This document shows positions 4,108-25,603 of a stretch of 32,000 bases of DNA, in pieces. Source of the DNA: Promethearchaeota archaeon (GTDB lineage Archaea > Asgardarchaeota > Lokiarchaeia > Sigyniarchaeales > Promethearchaeaceae). Position numbers and translations under genes: made by a program. The first letter of the stretch is position 1. Each line of letters begins with the position of its first letter. Below the pieces are notes generated by a model. It worked only from the letters and a program-made list of their open reading frames with translations. It was not told the origin of the DNA and did no database searches. The DNA lies in assembly GCA_016933055.1 (NCBI GenBank), contig JAFGBS010000001.1:270001-302000 (forward strand), given 5' to 3'.

Positions 4108-4776
4108 ATGAGAATTTTAGTTGTATCTGACCTCCATTTAGGGAATGGTAGTAAGAGTGATGACTTTGGATACGGGAGGGAAACTTTTGAGAGAGAAGCC
4201 AGATTTTTGGAATTTGTTGAATCCCAGAATCCCGACAGAGTCTATTTAAATGGAGATATATATGAATTATGGCAAGCTCGTTGGAAAAAAATAAAAAAAG
4301 CACATGAAAAATTAGTTAAAGTGTTTGAAAATGACCCGAAATATATATACATCGTTGGAAATCATGATTTTAATTTAACTGGTCTTTATTCCGATGAAAT
4401 TCGGACAAAATCTGGAAAGCGTGTCATAATTGCACATGGTTTCACTGCAGATCCTTGGATGAACAATGTATTCACTAGAACCTTAATTTGGTTTATAGGA
4501 GGATTAGAACGGTTAATTTCTCCAAATATCGATTTATGGCCCCATATGTTACGTCGATCAGGTGAGAAATCCATATTAAAAAAACGACAGACAAAGTATG
4601 CCGAGAAACTCCTTAAAACCTATGATATTTGTATCTTAGGCCATACTCATTACCTCGATATCGATACAAATGACGTAGGCAGGATTTATGCAAACACTGG
4701 AACTTGTCAAACTGGAAAACTACAAGGAATTTTATTGGATACAGAAACTGATGAGATTAGAATAGTAGAAGGGTGA
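4108..4776 (+). CDS. Calcineurin-like metallophosphoesterase (LpxH/UDP-2,3-diacylglucosamine hydrolase-like family)
   Basis: All five metal-binding motifs present: SDLHLG, NGDIYE, GNHD, AHG, GHTH; also YANTG. Confidence 0.88.
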   Translation: MRILVVSDLHLGNGSKSDDFGYGRETFEREARFLEFVESQNPDRVYLNGDIYELWQARWKKIKKAHEKLVKVFENDPKYIYIVGNHDFNLTGLYSDEIRTKSGKRVIIAHGFTADPWMNNVFTRTLIWFIGGLERLISPNIDLWPHMLRRSGEKSILKKRQTKYAEKLLKTYDICILGHTHYLDIDTNDVGRIYANTGTCQTGKLQGILLDTETDEIRIVEG

Positions 4777-5013: not shown

Positions 5014-6006
5014 CTAAGGAGGATATGCTATAGTGTAAATATGAGCACCACCTTCTTTAAGGGGTCCTTTTATAACTCTTTCCAATAATTTCTTGTCTTT
5101 CTGACTTAATTCATCAACTGGAGGAAGTTTACCTGGGGGAAATTTCTCAAGAATCTCGTTAACAAGTTTTTCCATATAATCAAGCAATGCATTCACACCT
5201 CCCTCAGCTTTTTTGGCATCTCCTTTGGTAGGACTTCCGACATTACCTTCTGGATATGCGGCGAATTCTACGGGACCCATTCCCACTTGTCCATACCATT
5301 TTATAGGCAACATATAAGCATTTCCTGCTTTATCTACATGCCCGTCAGAGAAATATCCTCGGGGTTCCGTGTCATCAGCATTTTCAATTTCAATCATTTC
5401 AGGAAAAAGGGCAAGACTGTAAGATGTTTCGCATTCATCTGCATGAATAAAGGGAGTTTCAAATTGACCAGTGGAAGGAAGACCGTATTTTTCTGCAGTT
5501 TTTTTATCTCGAATATGGGGATAAATTGCATGATACCAATTTAAATTGATGAAGATCCCAGGCACTTGGTATCTTTTCGCAAATTCATGAATAGCAGAAG
5601 GAATCACGTATTCTTGTCCATGCCCATTGAGAAGAATTTGTTTTCGAAATCCCATATTCCACAATCCCGCCATAATCGCACGAACATTTCCCTTAAAATG
5701 ATTTTCTGGTACCAATACGGTTCCTGGAAGCCCCATATGATGAAAGGGATGAGAACCATACCATACAGGTTCTGCTACAGTGCATCCTGTTTTCTCTGCA
5801 ATCATTTCAGCCATTCGAGTTACTAAAAAGGTATCTTCACCAATACAAGCTGCACCTCCATGGTTTTCAGTTGAACCCAACGGTATGATAATGATGTCGT
5901 TTTTCTTAAGCCTATCTTGAATTTGCTTGATAGACATTGTTTGTAGATAAATCCCTGCGGGTTTATCCATTACCGCTCCTTTCGGAGGAAGATTCCATTT
6001 TGTCAT
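5014..6006 (-). CDS. iolN: 3-dehydro-scyllo-inosose hydrolase (creatininase family)
   Basis: Creatininase metal motifs GSTENHG, EDT, NGHG, HADECETS. PAGIYLQTM, EDTFLVTRMAE, GFRKQILLNGHGQE, LNWYHAI, GHVDKAGN and AYPEG match Thermotoga IolN as I recall it; adjacent to iolM. Confidence 0.85.
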   Translation of the reverse strand: MTKWNLPPKGAVMDKPAGIYLQTMSIKQIQDRLKKNDIIIIPLGSTENHGGAACIGEDTFLVTRMAEMIAEKTGCTVAEPVWYGSHPFHHMGLPGTVLVPENHFKGNVRAIMAGLWNMGFRKQILLNGHGQEYVIPSAIHEFAKRYQVPGIFINLNWYHAIYPHIRDKKTAEKYGLPSTGQFETPFIHADECETSYSLALFPEMIEIENADDTEPRGYFSDGHVDKAGNAYMLPIKWYGQVGMGPVEFAAYPEGNVGSPTKGDAKKAEGGVNALLDYMEKLVNEILEKFPPGKLPPVDELSQKDKKLLERVIKGPLKEGGAHIYTIAYPP

Positions 6007-6026
6007 TTTTTTCCACCAATATAATT

Positions 6027-6046
6027 TATCAATATTTAAGTTGATA
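6027..6046. promoter_or_regulatory. Candidate operator TATCAA-N8-TTGATA in the divergent iolN/iolM intergenic region
   Basis: Perfect 6-bp inverted repeat (6027-6032 / 6041-6046) in a 106-bp divergent spacer; AT-rich, so chance is possible. Confidence 0.25.
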
Positions 6047-6112
6047 TGAGATCATTTTATCGACATTAAAATTCGATCTTTAAGATTAAATGAAAATTCG
6101 TAGGTTTTTAAA

Positions 6113-7291
6113 ATGAAAACAGTTCGATTATATGCGAGTTGGGATCCAAAGCCAGCATTCAAGCTGGGAAATAAAGATATTTCTGGAAAATTAACCTACT
6201 TAGGTTCACAAGTTTGGAGAAATCCAGAATTAAGGATTGAGGATGTTCCAATACCCACAATTAAACCAAATGAGGTACTAATCGAAGTAAAACGCTGTGG
6301 AATATGTGGATCGGATGTCCATATGTATCAGATAAATGAAGATGGATATATATGGTATCCCGGATTAACGGCTTTCCCGTGCACTTTGGGTCATGAATTT
6401 GCTGGTGTTGTAGCAAAGGCAGGTAATGAAGCTATCAATAAACGAACAAACAAACGATTTGAGGAGGGGGAACCCGTTACTGTTGAAGAAATGGTTTGGT
6501 GTGGACAATGTAAACCCTGTTGTGATGGCTATCCCAATCATTGTGAAGCCCTCCAAGAAATAGGTTTTTCCATAGATGGTGCATATGCAAAATATATTGC
6601 AGCTCCCGCAAAACTCTGCTGGTCTCTTAAGAAACTCGAGGGAAAATACCAAGACATATTTATGAACGGATCACTAGTGGAACCCACGAGTGTAGCATAT
6701 AACGCAGTTATAGAACGTGGAGGGGGAATTCGTCCAGGAGAGAATGTCGTTATTTTAGGAGCAGGACCAGTTGGAATTGCTGCAACTGCAATCCTAAAAC
6801 GCGCTGGGGCATCTGTGGTACTTGTCTCCGAACCAAATCCGCATCGGGCTGCGATGGCAAAAAAAATGGGAGCAGATTATACAATCAATCCTGCAGAAGA
6901 AAATTTTGTAGATAAAGTGAAGGAATGTACAGATAATGAAGGAGCAGCTCTTTATCTGGAAGCCACTGGATTGCCACATATTGTAACTGATGATATTCAA
7001 AACTGTATCTGGGAAACAAAATCGGTGAATTCTACTGTGGTTATTGTAGCTCGAGCGGATCAGAGAATGCCTTTAATGGGTGAAGTATTCCAGGTACGTA
7101 GAGGAAAAATTGTGGGTGCTCAAGGTCATTCGGGCCATGGAACCTTTCCAAACGTAATTTCCTTGATGGGTTCTGGTATGGATATGAGTCCTATGATCAC
7201 AAAAACCATAAAACTGGAAGAAGTACCCGAAAATCTTAAACTGTTACAAACTGATCGAGAGAACTGCAAGATAAGTGTAAAAATGGATTAA
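6113..7291 (+). CDS. iolM: scyllo-inosose 3-dehydrogenase (Zn-dependent MDR family)
   Basis: CGICGSDVH, GHE, structural Zn CGQCKPC..C and GAGPVG. The N-terminus VRLYASWDPKPAFKLGNKDISGKLTYLGSQVW and the motif GEVFQVRR..IVG.QGHSGHGTFP match Thermotoga IolM as recalled. Confidence 0.9.
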   Translation: MKTVRLYASWDPKPAFKLGNKDISGKLTYLGSQVWRNPELRIEDVPIPTIKPNEVLIEVKRCGICGSDVHMYQINEDGYIWYPGLTAFPCTLGHEFAGVVAKAGNEAINKRTNKRFEEGEPVTVEEMVWCGQCKPCCDGYPNHCEALQEIGFSIDGAYAKYIAAPAKLCWSLKKLEGKYQDIFMNGSLVEPTSVAYNAVIERGGGIRPGENVVILGAGPVGIAATAILKRAGASVVLVSEPNPHRAAMAKKMGADYTINPAEENFVDKVKECTDNEGAALYLEATGLPHIVTDDIQNCIWETKSVNSTVVIVARADQRMPLMGEVFQVRRGKIVGAQGHSGHGTFPNVISLMGSGMDMSPMITKTIKLEEVPENLKLLQTDRENCKISVKMD

Positions 7292-8106
7292 AAAATATTC
7301 GAAATATATTCTGAGGATTGTTTAGCAACACTTTCGAATGATGGTTTCATGATCGCCTCGATACTAAAGAATCCACCATAGCTATTATTAAATAATGTAT
7401 GAATTATTTTTTCATAATCTATTTCCCCTGCTTTCATTGCTCTACGATCAGGTCCTGCAAAATGGACATGATGAATATAAGGTGCATATTTTTCCAGATT
7501 TTGATAGAAGGATTCACTATCTTCTTCTAAATAGACATGAAAGGAATCAATCATTGCGAAGGTGCTAGATAAATTCACTTCTTGCAACAGATCAACCACT
7601 TCAGATAACGTGTGCAAAAAATCAATCTCAAATTGATTAATTGGTTCTATTACCAATTCGATATTGTATTTTTCTGCAATTTCATCCACAAGACTAAGGG
7701 ATTTCTTAAAGAGAGTTATTTCTGATTCTTGATTTTGATTGTAAGATCTTCTTCCCCTAATTAAACCTAAAATTACTTTTGGGTTTCCAATTAACTCACT
7801 GGCTAATTTACAATATAGATCCATGCGTTTGATGGCTTTTTCTCGCATTTTGTCGTCAATAGCACTTAAAGAATATCCATAGCGAAGAAATGTACTTCCC
7901 GTACCGATTGCTGAAATTTTCATATTATAACTTTCTAAATACGCATTGATTTTATCAACAGGAATATCTTCGGGTCTTAATAGTGCCAATTCAACTCCCG
8001 TATAGTCAAGATCCTTTAGAAAGTCAAATTTGGCTTTTATGGTTTCATCAAACTTGTTTAAGAAATTACTGTCAATTCCAATGACGATGCTTAGAGGTGT
8101 TTTCAA
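7288..8106 (-). CDS. iolO: 5-keto-L-gluconate epimerase-like sugar epimerase (xylose-isomerase-like TIM barrel)
   Basis: AIGTG, GLIRGRR, IEPINQFE, DSFH, HVH, SIE metal/catalytic motifs as in IolO/tagatose 3-epimerase; TTG start; 3' end overlaps iolM by 4 bp; genomic context supports the call. Confidence 0.75.
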   Translation of the reverse strand: MKTPLSIVIGIDSNFLNKFDETIKAKFDFLKDLDYTGVELALLRPEDIPVDKINAYLESYNMKISAIGTGSTFLRYGYSLSAIDDKMREKAIKRMDLYCKLASELIGNPKVILGLIRGRRSYNQNQESEITLFKKSLSLVDEIAEKYNIELVIEPINQFEIDFLHTLSEVVDLLQEVNLSSTFAMIDSFHVYLEEDSESFYQNLEKYAPYIHHVHFAGPDRRAMKAGEIDYEKIIHTLFNNSYGGFFSIEAIMKPSFESVAKQSSEYISNIF

Positions 8107-8193
8107 TTCTATCAGTTTATGATTTGATCCAATACAATAAATAACTAAAGGTCAAACATTAAGATAATTTCATACTTCAAATATGATGAAAAT

Positions 8194-9216
8194 ATGTTGC
8201 AGAAAATTGTTGCTGGAATCATAGGAGCGGGGCGTATTGGTAAAATTCATGCTGAAAATATCATGAATCATATCGAAAACGCCTACATTAAAACTATTGC
8301 AGACATAAAGATTGATCATTTAAAAAAATGGGCAGAGAATTTACGAATTTCACATCTCACGACAGATTACAGAGAAATCTTAGAGGATCCAGAAATTCAA
8401 GTGGTAATAATCTGTTCCTCTACTGATACCCATGTAAAATTTATTACTGAAGCTGCGAAAGCTGGAAAGCACATATTTTGTGAGAAACCAATCGATTTTG
8501 AGGTTTCGAGAATAAAAGATGCTTTGAATGCTGTAAAAGATGCAGGAGTTAAATTCATGATAGGATTTAACCGCAGATTTGATCATAATTTTCAACGAAT
8601 GAAAAAAGCTGTGCAGAAGGGGGATCTCGGAGAACCACATATCATTAAAATCTCATCTCGAGATCCAAATCCTCCTCCAATAGAATATCTCAAAGTTTCA
8701 GGAGGATTGTTTTTCGATATGGCAATCCATGATTGGGACATGTGTCGATATCTTTCAAACTCAGAAATCGCAGAAGTGTATGCTCAAGGTGCCGCATTTA
8801 ATGATCCCGAAATAAGTAATATTAACGATATTGATACGGCAGTCACTTTGTTGAAATCCAAATCGGGAATCATGTTTATAATTGATAATTCACGAAAAGC
8901 AGTATATGGATACGATCAACGAGTTGAGATTTTTGGATCTAAAGGAATGATTCTAAATTATAATGATACTATTAACAACGTCGAAATTTATTCAGAGAAC
9001 TCAATTGCAAGAGATAAAATCCCCTATTTCTTTTTGGAAAGGTACAGGGATTCTTATATTGTTGAAATGCGAGAATTATTCGAATGCGTTCAAAACAATT
9101 CAGACCCGAGCGTGAGTGGTGTAGACGGACTTCAAGCTGTGTTGATTGCAAAAGCAGCTTCACTATCCATGAGGGAAAACCGTCCAGTTAAATTAAGTGA
9201 AATAGAAGACAGTTAA
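8194..9216 (+). CDS. iolG: myo-inositol 2-dehydrogenase (Gfo/Idh/MocA family)
   Basis: GIIGAGRIG, CEKP, GFNRRFD, SRDP, GGLFFDMAIHDWD, GYDQRVEIFG, FFLERY. Confidence 0.9.
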   Translation: MLQKIVAGIIGAGRIGKIHAENIMNHIENAYIKTIADIKIDHLKKWAENLRISHLTTDYREILEDPEIQVVIICSSTDTHVKFITEAAKAGKHIFCEKPIDFEVSRIKDALNAVKDAGVKFMIGFNRRFDHNFQRMKKAVQKGDLGEPHIIKISSRDPNPPPIEYLKVSGGLFFDMAIHDWDMCRYLSNSEIAEVYAQGAAFNDPEISNINDIDTAVTLLKSKSGIMFIIDNSRKAVYGYDQRVEIFGSKGMILNYNDTINNVEIYSENSIARDKIPYFFLERYRDSYIVEMRELFECVQNNSDPSVSGVDGLQAVLIAKAASLSMRENRPVKLSEIEDS

Positions 9217-9319: not shown

Positions 9320-10333
9320 ATGAAGCGTGTTTGGTCAAAGATTTTGAAGAATTTTGGAATTTTTATGTTGATAGTAGTTATAATAATGGTACCATCGATC
9401 TTGCTTAGCGTTTATGGACCTAGGCAGTACAAATATGATGATAATAGCTTCGAATGGACCTATAGTGTACCCGAAGCGAGTGAATCCAACATCATATTTG
9501 ATCAACATTCTCATACCAAATATTCAGACGGAATTCTAACGGTAAGACAAAATATTTTGTGGCATATTGCCCATGGATTTAACGCAATGGTTCTCACAGA
9601 TCATAATAATCTGAGAAATTCAGATGATCTTCAAGAATTAGCGTTGGAATATACAAGTGAATTTATTATTATCCAAGGAATGGAGTGGACAACAAATCGA
9701 ATACATTTAAATTTCCTCGGAATTTCAGATTGGGATCTGAGGATCCCATGGAATCCAAGCGATGCTCAAATTCAAGAGGCGATCAATGAAGCTCATTCAC
9801 AAGGAGCTGTAGTAACGGTGAACCATATTCCATGGAGTCTAGAACGAATGCCCAATCACCCTACTCGGCAACAACTACTCACATGGGGTGTTGATTACAT
9901 CGAAATTGTAAACGGAGATGATTATGATATCGACTCAGACTCGTGGTGTAACAATACAGGAGGATTTGGCAGTATTACTGGAACAGATATGCACACTCCA
10001 ATGAATGTAAAAGCATGGACTTTGATGAATACTACAGAGTTCACTGCTGATGCGATTATGAACGAATTACGAGCTAGGAATACAACAATTATATATAACA
10101 CAACAGGGTCGGTTGATTTATCTAAGGGTTATAATAATATATTGTATGACATATTTAGTCCGTTTATCTACATTGGAGAATATTTCGAAAATTTCTATGC
10201 CAATCGGATTACAATCCCGTTCTTCTTCTCATATTTGATAGCTGGATTTGCAGGATATACTGCAATCCAATATGCTATTCAGAAATATAAAGAAAATAAG
10301 AAAAGAATACCAGAAAAAACTGAAAAAAAATAA
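9320..10333 (+). CDS. Membrane-anchored PHP-domain metallo-phosphoesterase
   Basis: N- and C-terminal TM helices enclosing PHP motifs DQHSHTKYSDG, LTDHN, GMEWTT..H, VNHIP, GTDMH. Confidence 0.85.
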   Translation: MKRVWSKILKNFGIFMLIVVIIMVPSILLSVYGPRQYKYDDNSFEWTYSVPEASESNIIFDQHSHTKYSDGILTVRQNILWHIAHGFNAMVLTDHNNLRNSDDLQELALEYTSEFIIIQGMEWTTNRIHLNFLGISDWDLRIPWNPSDAQIQEAINEAHSQGAVVTVNHIPWSLERMPNHPTRQQLLTWGVDYIEIVNGDDYDIDSDSWCNNTGGFGSITGTDMHTPMNVKAWTLMNTTEFTADAIMNELRARNTTIIYNTTGSVDLSKGYNNILYDIFSPFIYIGEYFENFYANRITIPFFFSYLIAGFAGYTAIQYAIQKYKENKKRIPEKTEKK

Positions 10334-10642: not shown

Positions 10643-10930
10643 TCACTTAATTTTGAAATTTTGTTTGAAATGTAAAACTGAAACAATCTTTATTGAGTTT
10701 TCAGAGAACAAGTAAATAATTTGATAACTATCAACGAAAATTTCTCTTAATTGTTTGGATTTATCTTCTGGAACGATTCTACCGATCTGTGGGAAATTCT
10801 TAAGTAGTTCAATTTTTTCATCAATTCTTTCTTTTAGAATATAACAATAATCAGATTTCTGCAATTCATAATATTCCAAGATTTCTTCTAACTTCTGAAG
10901 TGCAGGTGCAGTCCAGATTAGCGTGACCAT
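10643..10930 (-). CDS. Type II toxin, RelE/ParE family
   Basis: LIWTAPA..LEEI, LKNFPQIGRIVPE, LREIFVDSYQIIY, IVSVLH; overlaps the upstream antitoxin by 13 bp. Confidence 0.88.
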   Translation of the reverse strand: MVTLIWTAPALQKLEEILEYYELQKSDYCYILKERIDEKIELLKNFPQIGRIVPEDKSKQLREIFVDSYQIIYLFSENSIKIVSVLHFKQNFKIK

Positions 10931-16099: not shown

Positions 16100-17083
16100 A
16101 TGATCGTAAAAACAACACCAGAATATTTCGAATTATTAAATAAAGCCGTCGCCCGGGAAATTCAAGTAAGTGCACAATATATGCTCCAACATAGTGCGAT
16201 GGAAAAATTAAAACGAAAAGTAATCAAGGAAAACTATCTTCTTGACACAACCACCTATGATGAGTTAGGGGAACTACTTGAAAAAATGGCAATCGAGGAA
16301 ATGAAACACCTGGCAGATATTATGGAACGGATCTATTTCCTTGGTGGAGAAGCCATAACAAAGCCTACTAAGATTACAATCGGTAAATCCATGAAAGAAT
16401 TCATGAAATTGGGAGAGAAAGCGGAGATTGAAGCTCTCGAACTCTATCGTGAAGTTTTAAAAATGGCTAGAAACCTCGGTGATGATGCAACTTTCAAACT
16501 TTTCCGTCAGATCTATAAGGATGAGGAAGAACATCTGCTGAAATTCCAAGAATATCTAGATATTGAAGATGAAATTCCAGAGATCGAAAATGAACCACCA
16601 GAAAACGAGTGGCGGAAGATATTCACAGCTGATTACATCAAAATGTTAAATAAAGCTCTTGCAGCTGAAATGTCTGCCATAATTCAATATACAAATCAAC
16701 ATGAAAAAGCAAGTAAGGAAACTTTACGAAAGAAAAAAGCACCTTTAGAATTGCTTAAGGGATCAAATAAAGCCGAAGTTATTTCCGGGATGTTAAAACC
16801 TATATTCATGGAAGAAATGCAACATTTGGAAGATATTGCGGAGAGAATCTATGAAATCGATTTTGAGGCCGTAGCAGATATTGATCCTTTACCAAAAATT
16901 GGTGAGGGACCTGATGATTGGATCATTTTGGATCGTGAAGCAGAAGATTATGCAATTATTTTATACCGAAGCATTGTGAAAAAGGCTACTGAAATAGGGG
17001 ATATCAAAACAAAACGTATGTTTGAGAAAATCCTTGAGGAAGAGGAAAACCATTATTGGCAATTCGATGACTATGTTCTCTAG
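16100..17083 (+). CDS. Tandem (two-domain) bacterioferritin/ferritin-like diiron protein
   Basis: Two copies of LNKA.A.E...QY..QH ... EEM(K/Q)HL..I.ERIY ... E..A..LYR ... GD..T...F..I...EE.H. Confidence 0.88.
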   Translation: MIVKTTPEYFELLNKAVAREIQVSAQYMLQHSAMEKLKRKVIKENYLLDTTTYDELGELLEKMAIEEMKHLADIMERIYFLGGEAITKPTKITIGKSMKEFMKLGEKAEIEALELYREVLKMARNLGDDATFKLFRQIYKDEEEHLLKFQEYLDIEDEIPEIENEPPENEWRKIFTADYIKMLNKALAAEMSAIIQYTNQHEKASKETLRKKKAPLELLKGSNKAEVISGMLKPIFMEEMQHLEDIAERIYEIDFEAVADIDPLPKIGEGPDDWIILDREAEDYAIILYRSIVKKATEIGDIKTKRMFEKILEEEENHYWQFDDYVL

Positions 17084-20924: not shown

Positions 20925-23435
20925 TTGTATCTAGAGAAAATGCGAAAACGAATTATCAACATTTTGTGTGCAGGAAAAATCTTTGCTCTAATTATTGTTG
21001 CTTATGAGACATTGTTTTTAATTATGTTTTCTCATCTAGTGGATTTTGAAACTGGAATTCAATTTCTAAGATTATTTCGGTATGAATCATTCATTCCAAC
21101 AGGATTTGGACCATTTCTAGCATGGTTAACTCCTCATGTGTTGATTTTTATCGTCGTTTTCGGATTTTTTTGGTGGGATTGGGGAGAGGTGCCCAAATAT
21201 ATTGCAATAGGAGCCGTGATTGTTCTTAGCATTATGAATTCCATTTGGTTTGCATCCCTACTTCCGTTTTTTATGTGGATATTTCTGATCTATCTTTTAA
21301 TACGAGTTCCCCCCATAGCATTTCGGAAATTATTTTACTTTGCGATAAAGAGGAAGAATACACCGCTCAGAATTTTGACTAAACAAATTCCGAGTTGGAC
21401 ACAACTACTGGGAATCATTCTCATTTTGCCATTATTCATCCCCAGTATTCCCTATATCACGGGTTCCTTGGAACAACCCGAACCTTATATTTGGAATTTG
21501 GAATATCACGGTGGAAATTTTACTGAGCGAAAATTACTTGCAGGTAATGATAGTTTAACCTATGCTCCTTCAAGTCCCAATACACAATTCATTAACGTCT
21601 ATTTAGGAAATCCAGTTGTAGAATCACAAATCCTAGGAGGATTATATAAAATCTATGGGGAAGATGGGGGAGATTTTGAAATGAATAAAGTCCTCCGCCT
21701 TCTATATCTAAATAATGTTACCGACGTACTTACTAATGAAACCCGTACACTAATTGAAGGAGCTCTTTTATACGGTAAATATTGGGTTGACCAACAGGGA
21801 GTCTCAAATGGATTATATTGGACGGAAAATCACCAGATTGGATATCATACCGCTGAATTATTATCGGGACAGATGTTCCGGGCGAGAACATTTAATCGTA
21901 CTTTAATGACAGGAGAAGAACATATTGCTCATGCAGAGTATATGATTACCAAATGGATTGATTGGCGAGCCCGATTTGGCTTTAGCGAATACCATAGTAA
22001 TGTCTATTATGACATTGATTTTCGTGCTTTACTTAATCTTGTAGATTTTGCGGAAAACGCAACTATAGCGAATAAAGCTGCTATGCTATTAGATTTGATG
22101 AATTTTGATTTTGCAAATAACTATTTCAAGGATATCTATGCAATAGCCCATGGCCGATGTTATGGGGAATCCAAAGTTGCCACGGTTACGGGTAGCTTTC
22201 AAAATAGAGATAGCATCGCAGATGCTGTATGGTTATGGCTCGGTATTGGAGGTTATAATGGGTGGGGAATTAGTACCACCGAAGCATTCATCCTAACTAG
22301 TACATACCAACCCTCATCGATTTTGGAGAAGATAGCACAAGATGCGAAGGTTTTCAATGAACATAAAGACAGAAACGGTATGAATGTAGATGAGGGTGAA
22401 TCCTATGGGATTGAATATAACGAAGAAGATATCATGTATTGGTGGGGAATGACGAACTACCTAGGTTCGGAAATCATTGAAACCACTTTTGACTATGTCG
22501 AAAAATACGATATTGATCCTGCACTTGTGTTCGGACCAGGAGTGATGAATTATACCAGATTTGCGGCAAATCTTCGAGCTTTATCTTTATCCGAGTTTTC
22601 TTTATTAATGAAGGAATTTACAGAGGGAATCGCCCAAGAAGCGGCTAATTTATACACTTATCGTACGTCATATTACCAGTTATCTGGATTACAAGACTAC
22701 CAAAAAGGAAAAAATAGCGTACAAGAGCATATATGGCAAGCATCTTTGTCCAATAATGCATATATATTTACTAATGCACCTGGAGGGTTGAACTGGAAGG
22801 GTGGTCCGTTCATGGGAGGGTGGATGCCGCGGGGTGTATTCCATAAGAATATCGGTGTAATCCAATACGACCATCGTCATGAAATTATAGGAGGAAAATT
22901 ACTCGCACAGTTAGCAGATGCGGGATTAAATATGTTCACTGGCAACCGCCCGAAAAATCATGCTTATTTTCCAAAATGGGCATTCGATCAAGTGGTTTCG
23001 AAAGGAAGATGGACATTTGGTTCTAAAGATGGTGGATATGTGGCTTTGTTCTCTAAAAATCCGACGTTCTGGGCATCAGATTATGAATTAACAGCTCTTG
23101 GGGAGAAAAATGTCTGGATCGTGGAAATGGGGAGCGAATCAGAATATGCTTCTTTTGCTGATTTCATACAGCAAATTTTGTCAGCCCAAATAGATATTAA
23201 ATCTGCAAGAATAGGATTCACAGTAAGTTATGACTCCCCCTCCCAAGGATTAGCTTCTGTGGGGTGGGAGGGAGATTTTATTGTTAATGGCACCGTAATG
23301 GATTTGGAATATGAACGCTTTGAGAACAAATATGTGAGTACTGCTGGTTTTAACTCATTGGAGACTATTATCGAGTTTAATGGAGAGAAATTAACGCTAA
23401 ATTTTGCGAATAACACGCGATTATATGAACCATGA
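20925..23435 (+). CDS. Large membrane-anchored protein; putative extracellular glycan-lyase/heparinase-like fold
   Basis: About five N-terminal TM helices, then a ~650-aa soluble region with helical WTENHQI, GFSEYHSNVYY and HGR.Y segments and a beta-rich C-terminus. Probable ATG start at 20940. Function is inferred only. Confidence 0.6.
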   Translation: MYLEKMRKRIINILCAGKIFALIIVAYETLFLIMFSHLVDFETGIQFLRLFRYESFIPTGFGPFLAWLTPHVLIFIVVFGFFWWDWGEVPKYIAIGAVIVLSIMNSIWFASLLPFFMWIFLIYLLIRVPPIAFRKLFYFAIKRKNTPLRILTKQIPSWTQLLGIILILPLFIPSIPYITGSLEQPEPYIWNLEYHGGNFTERKLLAGNDSLTYAPSSPNTQFINVYLGNPVVESQILGGLYKIYGEDGGDFEMNKVLRLLYLNNVTDVLTNETRTLIEGALLYGKYWVDQQGVSNGLYWTENHQIGYHTAELLSGQMFRARTFNRTLMTGEEHIAHAEYMITKWIDWRARFGFSEYHSNVYYDIDFRALLNLVDFAENATIANKAAMLLDLMNFDFANNYFKDIYAIAHGRCYGESKVATVTGSFQNRDSIADAVWLWLGIGGYNGWGISTTEAFILTSTYQPSSILEKIAQDAKVFNEHKDRNGMNVDEGESYGIEYNEEDIMYWWGMTNYLGSEIIETTFDYVEKYDIDPALVFGPGVMNYTRFAANLRALSLSEFSLLMKEFTEGIAQEAANLYTYRTSYYQLSGLQDYQKGKNSVQEHIWQASLSNNAYIFTNAPGGLNWKGGPFMGGWMPRGVFHKNIGVIQYDHRHEIIGGKLLAQLADAGLNMFTGNRPKNHAYFPKWAFDQVVSKGRWTFGSKDGGYVALFSKNPTFWASDYELTALGEKNVWIVEMGSESEYASFADFIQQILSAQIDIKSARIGFTVSYDSPSQGLASVGWEGDFIVNGTVMDLEYERFENKYVSTAGFNSLETIIEFNGEKLTLNFANNTRLYEP

Positions 23436-24430: not shown

Positions 24431-25603
24431 TTATTTAATATCGATTGCGTAAACTTGCCGTCCATGAGCCCCCAATCCATCAAAACTTAATTGAGATCCA
24501 TCCGGCTTCCAACGAGGATGAGGATCGCAACGGATATCCTCTTTAATATGCTTAGGGTTTTCAAATTCAGCCACAATCAGTAGATCTTCTGCCTTCATAT
24601 CAAAAATGTAAACAAATCGCTTATTTTTTACAATGTATGTGTCCGTAGCTAAGTACTTCTTATCTGGACTGAACACAGGATGTCCATTCCATGTTAATCG
24701 TTGCGGAGATATCGCATGAGATTCCCCATCGCGATCTTTGATCAGAACATGGGAATAATTTGTTTCCTTTAAGTATTTCATAGTAACAATGAGAGTAGAG
24801 TTGCTATACCATCCAAAGTGAGAGAGTTGATTATTAAAATCCACTACCAGGTAAGGATCTGAACCGTCTGTATTCATCGTCCACATACTCGAAACAAGCA
24901 TTTTATAAGAATTAGTAAAACGTGCAAGGAAGAAAAATCGATCATCTTCCGGTGAAAATCCCAGATGGTTGAACCAATAGTTTTGTCCTTTCAACAGTAA
25001 ATCCTGTCCTTCCCGAGTAATTTTATTCTTATTCCAAATCTCATCAAAACTTGCGATAAGGTCGGATTCTCCACTTTTTAAGTTCATTAAAAAAACTCCG
25101 TCATCTTCAGGATGCAAACCACCTGTGGCATAATCATACTCAGACGGATAAGAGACAACTGGTCGATTTTTCCGTAAACGCGCAAAATTCACACATAATG
25201 CTAGATCTTTAGAATGGGCGATTGCGTTAATTGCACGGGGAAGTTTTCGTTCTTCTTCTGATTGGATGTCTATTATTCGAGAAAAAATTCCCTTGGGGTC
25301 GCAATCATTGAATACTATTTTATTATTAGGTTCAGAAGGTAGCCAGTGTAAAAGGCAACCTTGCTGAAAATTCCATCCTTGAGTTTCAGTTAGCACTCGG
25401 TAAGTTTCTTCTTTCAGATCTAGCAATATAATCCGAGCCTTATCACCCATCGAGGGCATATGATCTTGGAAATCTGTTTCCAAGCATACAAAGTATCGTC
25501 CATTCTTTGACCATGGACTAGTCTCGTAATACCCAAAGAAATGATGGGGATAATTGGGAGTTAACTGAATTGGATCCGAAAATTCCATAGTAAGTTTAAA
25601 CAC
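24431..25603 (-). CDS. Beta-propeller protein, oligogalacturonate-lyase/TolB-like
   Basis: FFGYY..SPWS, WNFQQG, WFNHLGFSP, SHFGW, GHPVFSPD, RCDPHPRW.PDG..LSFD repeats. Confidence 0.7.
   Translation of the reverse strand: MFKLTMEFSDPIQLTPNYPHHFFGYYETSPWSKNGRYFVCLETDFQDHMPSMGDKARIILLDLKEETYRVLTETQGWNFQQGCLLHWLPSEPNNKIVFNDCDPKGIFSRIIDIQSEEERKLPRAINAIAHSKDLALCVNFARLRKNRPVVSYPSEYDYATGGLHPEDDGVFLMNLKSGESDLIASFDEIWNKNKITREGQDLLLKGQNYWFNHLGFSPEDDRFFFLARFTNSYKMLVSSMWTMNTDGSDPYLVVDFNNQLSHFGWYSNSTLIVTMKYLKETNYSHVLIKDRDGESHAISPQRLTWNGHPVFSPDKKYLATDTYIVKNKRFVYIFDMKAEDLLIVAEFENPKHIKEDIRCDPHPRWKPDGSQLSFDGLGAHGRQVYAIDIK

Follow-up and report, generated by a model that had tools for sequence, protein, structure and literature searches.

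Does the genome of a lokiarchaeal archaeon encode a route of inositol catabolism, and how would the product of ring opening then be used? The question is raised by four adjacent genes of the iolN, iolM, iolO and iolG types at positions 5014-9216 of a 32,000-nucleotide stretch of DNA (the window) from the Promethearchaeota archaeon assembly GCA_016933055.1 (contig JAFGBS010000001.1, positions 270,001 to 302,000). The window belongs to a 303-kb contig of genome-typical GC content, in a genome of 3.76 Mb (hereafter G000; C-numbers denote its contigs, L-numbers loci and other G-numbers the genomes of relatives). Our analyses lean modestly towards a combined explanation, the oxidative ring-opening route of Thermotoga, long resident in this lokiarchaeal order, with a different exit. 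Comparisons were made in particular with the sister family of the host family, here called f3, the largest sampled family of Lokiarchaeia (135 genomes), whose gene profile rests on related, incomplete metagenome-assembled genomes (MAGs).

An initial interpretation made by a model from the letters of the window (the sequence-only reading) had described four adjacent genes of these types, and this description held. The ORFs are intact and lie on alternating strands (-, +, -, +); three of the predicted proteins exceed the NCBIfam cut-offs that served as thresholds for family assignment, and IolO is the best family for the fourth. The iolN gene (5014..6006, - strand) codes for a 330-residue protein of the creatininase family, a predicted 3-dehydro-scyllo-inosose (diketo-inositol) hydrolase (NF041098, 495.5 bits for a cut-off of 245). 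The iolM gene (6113..7291, + strand) codes for a 392-residue, Zn-dependent medium-chain dehydrogenase/reductase (MDR), the predicted scyllo-inosose 3-dehydrogenase (NF041097, 500.4 bits for 450; PDB entry 3ip1, E 1e-175), and iolG (8194..9216, + strand) for a 340-residue Gfo/Idh/MocA protein, the predicted myo-inositol 2-dehydrogenase (TIGR04380, 457.9 bits for 355; top PDB match 3ezy, E 2e-103). We take 3ip1 to be TM0412 and 3ezy to be TM0414. The iolO-like gene (7288..8106, - strand), with a TTG start, codes for a 272-residue TIM barrel of the ketose 3-epimerase family, a probable 5-keto-L-gluconate 4-epimerase. The genes form two divergent pairs. The AT-rich 106-bp region between iolN and iolM (6007..6112) presumably carries promoters, and the same divergent layout is found in L261 and L262; 87 bp separate iolO from iolG (8107..8193), and iolM and iolO share 4 nt at their stop codons. 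Since the strands alternate, the iol genes constitute a cluster rather than a Thermotoga-style single operon. Identical gene order and orientation were found in GCA_048886965.

In Thermotoga maritima, the inositol operon TM0411-TM0416 codes for IolR, IolM, IolN, IolG, IolK and IolO, respectively (Rodionova et al. 2013, as cited in PMC5931981 and PMC12632266). We used for comparison a Thermotoga locus in which IolN matches the T. maritima MSB8 protein exactly. Global identities to its proteins are 63.8% for IolM, 61.8% for IolN, 46.1% for IolG and 30.0% for IolO, and searches of G000 with each of these Thermotoga proteins returned the window gene as the top match. Metal, cofactor and catalytic motifs are retained in all four proteins. 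The sequence-only reading had noted a likeness of the IolM and IolN motifs to those of Thermotoga, and the alignments agree: IolN has the same GSTE, GED, NGHGQE and HADE motifs, and IolM keeps both its catalytic and its structural Zn ligands. In IolG, CEKP, GFNRRFD and DMxIHD are retained. Phylogenetic trees were built from about 40-70 sequences taken from the top hits, with many near-identical rows thinned; IolM falls in the Thermotoga-type clade with 100/100 support.

The claim that all four core enzymes are present thus stands for IolN, IolM and IolG, and for the IolO-like protein in part. NF041099 is its best family, at 192.6 bits for a cut-off of 300, and the other lokiarchaeal score obtained, 221 bits, also falls under that threshold. 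The score with the IolE family is 29 bits. Its best PDB match is TM0416 (E 1e-32), followed 22 orders of magnitude behind by the next (2e-10), and it retains E154, D187, H190, H215, R221, E250 and the GLxRGR motif. The roles of these residues are those that we assume for TM0416, partly from citing papers. The window gene is orthologous to the IolO-like genes adjoining uxaE in G026. Because a Luteolibacter homologue with 35% identity has proven activity (PMC12632266), an identity of 30% does not exclude IolO function.

By analogy with T. maritima, IolG would oxidise myo-inositol to scyllo-inosose, which IolM would oxidise to 3-dehydro-scyllo-inosose; IolN would hydrolyse the ring to 5-keto-L-gluconate, and the IolO-like enzyme would epimerise the latter to D-tagaturonate. 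Uptake would probably occur through a transporter of the MFS or GPH family encoded elsewhere. With the families assigned here and the chemistry transferred from T. maritima, we regard this upper part, from inositol to tagaturonate, as probable. Several facts weigh against it, namely the IolO score under the cut-off, the fast evolution of the window copy (a branch of 0.71 in the lokiarchaeal IolO clade, with unique changes) and the inability of T. maritima to grow on inositol as such (PMC3750489), which means that the presence of the genes is no proof of growth. The same facts would fit a cluster whose substrate is a different cyclitol (scyllo- or chiro-inositol, or a methylated or phosphorylated inositol), that yields another keto-acid, or whose IolO-like enzyme has drifted in specificity, as would the presence of a Zn-dependent MDR in the IolG slot of 14 f3 genomes against IolG in 4. 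Such alternatives appear improbable, however, given that IolM and IolN are 62-64% identical to their Thermotoga counterparts and retain all motifs, and given the association with UxaE. In f3, UxaE occurs in 28 genomes and UxuA in 32, of which 27 and 29, respectively, carry IolN. Since UxaE tracks IolN in this manner, the product of the cluster is probably tagaturonate, at least in f3. In G026, uxuB-uxuA-uxaC-uxaE are placed between iolM and iolN.

The usual f3 layout consists of a dehydrogenase gene, an MFS or GPH transporter gene and iolM, then divergent iolO and iolN. Among 22 f3 genomes, the slot upstream of the transporter holds IolG in 4 and the Zn-dependent MDR in 14, never both (e.g. 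L029:1182-2246; loci L102, L104, L105 and L181-L200). This pattern suggests that the MDR replaces IolG and makes it a candidate non-orthologous inositol dehydrogenase. On the other side, an MDR with 41% identity co-occurs with an IolG-like gene in Desulfofundulus, and several f3 genomes have the MDR or IolG yet no iolN. At one f3 locus (L107:8290-9114, G023), a 274-residue protein with no Pfam or NCBIfam match is encoded between iolO and iolN; a homologue with 80% identity is found by iolN in L151 (G241), and both genomes use UxaE and UxuA.

The proposal that this archaeon catabolises inositol by the Thermotoga route holds for the upper part, but not for the lower part. Searches of G000, which is 91% complete and in which positive controls were detected, found no members of the UxaE, UxuA, UxaA and UxaB/mannitol-dehydrogenase families; the genome also has no UxuB orthologue (best match 28.5%). 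UxaC, KdgK (C27:20881) and Eda, the 2-keto-3-deoxy-6-phosphogluconate aldolase, are present, KdgK being 57% identical to kinases adjoining eda in relatives. With UxaE, UxuB and UxuA not found, a Thermotoga-style finish would be impossible in G000 unless the genes are unassembled. That they lie in the missing 9% of the genome would be in line with its completeness and with the occurrence of both enzymes in f3. Nevertheless, we consider it very unlikely, as none of the 14 genomes of the host family, three of them single-contig, encodes UxaE or UxuA, and G000 carries a kinase that meets UxuA in none of 161 genomes (see below). As for the Bacillus-type route, no IolB, IolD or IolE orthologues were found in G000 with queries adjoining iolG in four relatives, the best IolD match being at 27%. 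In those relatives (L188-L191, from G003, G018, G007 and G016, respectively), iolB/iolD/iolE-like genes adjoin iolG, and thus both inositol routes exist within one lokiarchaeal order. Their IolG proteins belong to the same lokiarchaeal IolG clade.

We propose instead that tagaturonate leaves by phosphorylation and aldol cleavage, as in the chemistry of IolC and IolJ, in which a kinase and then an aldolase yield dihydroxyacetone phosphate (DHAP) and malonate semialdehyde. A PfkB kinase of G000 (C17:756157-757326) would phosphorylate the keto-uronate at its terminal CH2OH, and a class I aldolase domain of the Cgl0159 type would cleave tagaturonate phosphate to DHAP and tartronate semialdehyde. 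From there, either a 2-hydroxyacid dehydrogenase or a tartronate-semialdehyde-reductase-like enzyme (C35:23729-24613) would act on the C3 acid, whose product would enter glycolysis by way of glycerate kinase (C11:78739). Resting on the analogy with IolC and IolJ, this lower part seems to us slightly favoured.

The aldolase domain is part of a 702-residue, two-barrel fusion protein (C36:107431-109539). Its N-terminal barrel resembles tagatose 3-epimerases (epimerase/isomerase), and its C-terminal barrel belongs to the Cgl0159 family (PF22649, E 6e-67), the structure model superimposing on 3FOK with a template modelling score of 0.88. K576, G598-G599 and G628-R629, the latter two in GG and GRN motifs, are invariant in 13 aldolase sequences. 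Going by class I aldolase roles, K576 is presumably the Schiff-base Lys, and the GG and GR motifs presumably bind phosphate. The PfkB kinase family has no NCBIfam match at 1e-20, the reductase-like protein scores 254 bits with the 2-hydroxy-3-oxopropionate reductase family, under the cut-off of 341, and the glycerate-kinase-family gene of G000 is of the DUF4147 type.

Gene neighbourhoods elsewhere link these families. On a Njordarchaeia-like contig, genes for a 2-hydroxyacid dehydrogenase (glyoxylate/hydroxypyruvate reductase-like), a Cgl0159-type aldolase and a kinase of the phosphofructokinase (PFK) family adjoin iolO, iolM and iolN. The Cgl0159-type aldolase gene lies at most 6 kb from iolN in nine bacterial loci, and in Anaerolineales (L038) aldolase and PFK-like genes follow iolNO, the PFK family being that of the Njordarchaeia-like contig. 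G000 contains no orthologue of this PFK-family kinase, the match being partial and at 27%. In the cultivated Candidatus Lokiarchaeum ossiferum, genes for the aldolase fusion, an iron-containing alcohol dehydrogenase and a PfkB kinase form a run with uxaC, all in the same orientation (L283:6780-12703); the best G000 match of that kinase (35%) is the one at C17:756157, and UxuA and UxaE were not found in the L. ossiferum genome. This run might possibly give a cultivated Asgard archaeon a route for hexuronates. Tagaturonate has been raised as a possible acceptor for TM0415 (PMC5931981). An incomplete literature search returned no papers that deal with Cgl0159 or with a route from tagaturonate by kinase and aldolase.

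Among the 78 IolN-positive f3 genomes, 29 have UxuA, 36 have the PfkB kinase and none has both; over all 161 genomes, the two never occur together, and the exclusion is seen inside four genera in which both states are present. Of the 78 IolN-positive genomes, 71 encode one or more of kinase, aldolase, UxaE and UxuA, versus 8 of the 57 IolN-negative ones. The aldolase is found in 27 genomes with IolN and 2 without, never with UxuA, and 25 of these 29 genomes have the kinase. Furthermore, the kinase gene has the same neighbour, a small-GTPase-like gene, in G000 as in f3. Lineages with UxuA are dispersed among kinase lineages in the IolN tree, which requires 5 changes, 3 of them forced by supported branches. 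Fisher p values down to 1e-11 overstate the association, as related genomes are not independent.

Several observations speak against this exit. In a sign test limited to one-gene genomes, all 3 supported independent UxuA/kinase pairs (5 in the best tree) are concordant, giving p=0.25; with so few pairs the test could not become significant. In G000, itself an incomplete genome, the iol cluster, the kinase gene and the aldolase gene are each on a contig of their own. Sixteen kinase-positive f3 genomes are devoid of this aldolase and would need another one. The kinase and the fusion also occur in L. ossiferum and in family f4, which have no IolN; they are therefore not specific to inositol and may be general keto-uronate enzymes. 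The fusion gene mostly adjoins an aminotransferase gene and not sugar genes, and the enzymes are known here from their genes, Cgl0159 itself being uncharacterised.

A different finish to the same upper route would be the reduction and dehydration of tagaturonate by non-orthologous enzymes (a short-chain dehydrogenase/reductase (SDR) or MDR, then an IlvD or enolase-family protein, perhaps LarA), followed by KdgK and Eda. G000 encodes KdgK, Eda, UxaC, two IlvD and three enolase-family proteins, and Desulfofundulus has a gene run iolM-MDR-iolN-iolO-eda-kdgK. In the lokiarchaeal loci, however, the candidate reductases and dehydratases, KdgK and Eda show no linkage to the iol genes, and KdgK and Eda can be explained otherwise: the window contains an Ogl-like gene, and four family members have homologues of another window gene (20925-23435) next to eda-kdgK. 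This finish would moreover leave the non-co-occurrence of kinase and UxuA unexplained, and we regard it as unlikely. The eda operon on C2, the IlvD clusters on C10 and C22 and the FGGY kinases were considered as well, and none could be linked to the iol genes.

Some of these loci are of interest in their own right. The operon at the end of C2 (L115:15584-19599) is conserved in L238, L240 and L243 and codes for a shikimate-dehydrogenase-like protein, a cupin glucose-6-phosphate isomerase-like protein, a 2-hydroxyacid dehydrogenase, a metallo-beta-lactamase-fold protein and Eda; in G026 and G028 it extends into genes for an FGGY kinase, a glycyl radical enzyme and its activase. On C27 (L265:5363-10721), kdgK is found in a tight run with genes for a 514-residue protein of no Pfam family, an SDR and a 666-residue FAD-binding protein. 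The window gene at 20925-23435 codes for an 836-residue protein with no Pfam match, whose eda-kdgK-adjoining homologues are in G006, G009, G010 and G013, and the nearby Ogl-like gene (24431-25603) codes for an oligogalacturonate-lyase-like protein. Together, these two might possibly belong to a uronate glycan lyase route whose products go to KdgK and Eda. Finally, in L037, L051-L053, L067, L070, L072 and L075, from NC10 and one Bacillota genome, split transketolase-like genes adjoin iolN, and the NC10 loci also hold iolM and iolO. These transketolases have no match in G000 and possibly represent a third exit.

The host is an Asgard archaeon, as the sequence-only reading had supposed, and belongs to the Lokiarchaeia and the family of L. 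ossiferum. A prolyl-tRNA synthetase (ProRS) gene in the window, 3.7 kb from the cluster, codes for a protein 58-60% identical to the ProRS of three family members, an archaeal 16S rRNA gene was found in G000, and the closest homologues are from Promethearchaeota. A mis-binned bacterial contig or a recent transfer from Thermotogota might be invoked, as the route has been described in bacteria and lokiarchaeal IolM nests among bacterial sequences, within the Thermotoga-type clade with Desulfofundulus. This explanation is effectively refuted by the length and GC content of the contig, by the ProRS and the nearest homologues, by the native GC content at third codon positions of the cluster genes (at most 1.2 standard deviations from the genome mean) and by the IolN tree, in which the lokiarchaeal sequences group with other archaea (95/91) and their monophyly with Thermotoga is rejected (approximately unbiased test, p=0.017).

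The lateral transfer that had been suggested would be an old rather than a recent event. The lokiarchaeal sequences form clades for all four proteins (IolM 100/100, IolN 99/93, IolO 99 and IolG 99/99), and the window lineage is sister to f3 in the IolM, IolN and IolO trees. IolN is present in 78 of the 135 f3 genomes (58%), in none of the 13 other genomes of the host family, in 2 of 7 from the rest of the class and in just 3 of 239 sampled genomes of the phylum outside the class. In f3, the iol block occupies a conserved chromosomal slot, which in some genomes is present without the block. These data are most simply read as an old acquisition, after which the genes were inherited and in places lost, and the IolM tree agrees with bacteria as the source of such an ancient transfer. 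As the IolN and IolO trees have no firm root, we name no donor. A wider scenario can be offered more tentatively. Lokiarchaeia would ancestrally have had IolGMNO with a phosphorylative exit, made of a new keto-uronate kinase family and the Cgl0159-type aldolase, which was replaced several times by bacterial UxaE/UxuB/UxuA, and the Zn-dependent MDR would be the inositol dehydrogenase of most f3 members.

The cluster is bordered by genes for a calcineurin-like phosphoesterase (4108-4776) and a membrane-anchored PHP hydrolase (9320-10333). We keep both out of the iol system because no homologues of them were found near related iolN loci (L001-L100). Elsewhere in the window, a ParE/RelE-family toxin gene (10643-10930, - strand) with a 61-residue upstream ORF likely forms a type II toxin-antitoxin pair, and a 327-residue tandem two-domain ferritin/bacterioferritin-like protein is encoded at 16100-17083.

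The system thus resembles the T. maritima pathway in its clustered, orthologous IolM, IolN and IolG and probable IolO with conserved catalytic motifs, and differs from it in its alternating strands, in an IolO score under the cut-off and in that UxaE, UxuB and UxuA were not found. Searches of G000 with Thermotoga queries found no IolR, IolK or InoEFGK (no match for IolR and InoE, and just 22% for IolK). Like the IolC/IolJ half of the Bacillus subtilis pathway, the proposed exit would yield DHAP and a C3 semialdehyde by aldol cleavage of a phosphorylated 5-keto-hexonate. Its substrate would keep the 2-OH, however, and the enzymes would be a lokiarchaeal PfkB family and a class I, Cgl0159-type aldolase rather than the class II IolJ. 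The C-terminal barrel of the fusion is of the same family as Corynebacterium glutamicum Cgl0159 (PDB 3FOK, PF22649), whose activity is unproven; unlike the latter, the G000 aldolase is fused to a tagatose-3-epimerase-like barrel and tracks the IolMNO route. The L-glucose/L-galactose pathway of Luteolibacter LG18 includes the same LguG-type conversion of 5-keto-L-gluconate to D-tagaturonate by a distant IolO homologue (PMC12632266). In contrast with G000, it starts from L-sugars and exits by tagaturonate reductase and altronate dehydratase, as in the L-galactonate pathway of Escherichia coli; the corresponding UxaB and UxaA families are those not found in G000.

The sequence-only reading knew of no characterisation of the route in Asgard archaea, and we likewise found no paper on inositol catabolism in these archaea in our incomplete literature search. 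The genes are not rare, however, as the f3 counts show, and NCBI annotation names many such Promethearchaeota MAG proteins scyllo-inosose 3-dehydrogenase (IolM). A 2022 survey restricted to IolBCDE came to the conclusion that only bacteria degrade inositol by means of those genes (PMC9430895). The suggested relevance to archaeal and eukaryotic lipids gained no support, IolN being so scarce in the phylum outside Lokiarchaeia, and neither did any connection with the origin of eukaryotes. The four-gene route is itself known and machine-annotated in these genomes, and its presence alone is modest news; of more interest is the probable exit from tagaturonate by kinase and aldolase, of which we found no description. 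The either/or pattern with UxuA points to two specific uncharacterised enzymes for this exit and, if the proposal is true, it would provide a function for Pfam PF22649 and for a Promethearchaeota PfkB family. With IolN in 58% of f3, inositol may have been overlooked as a substrate that sediment Lokiarchaeia commonly use, and it is a candidate for their enrichment.

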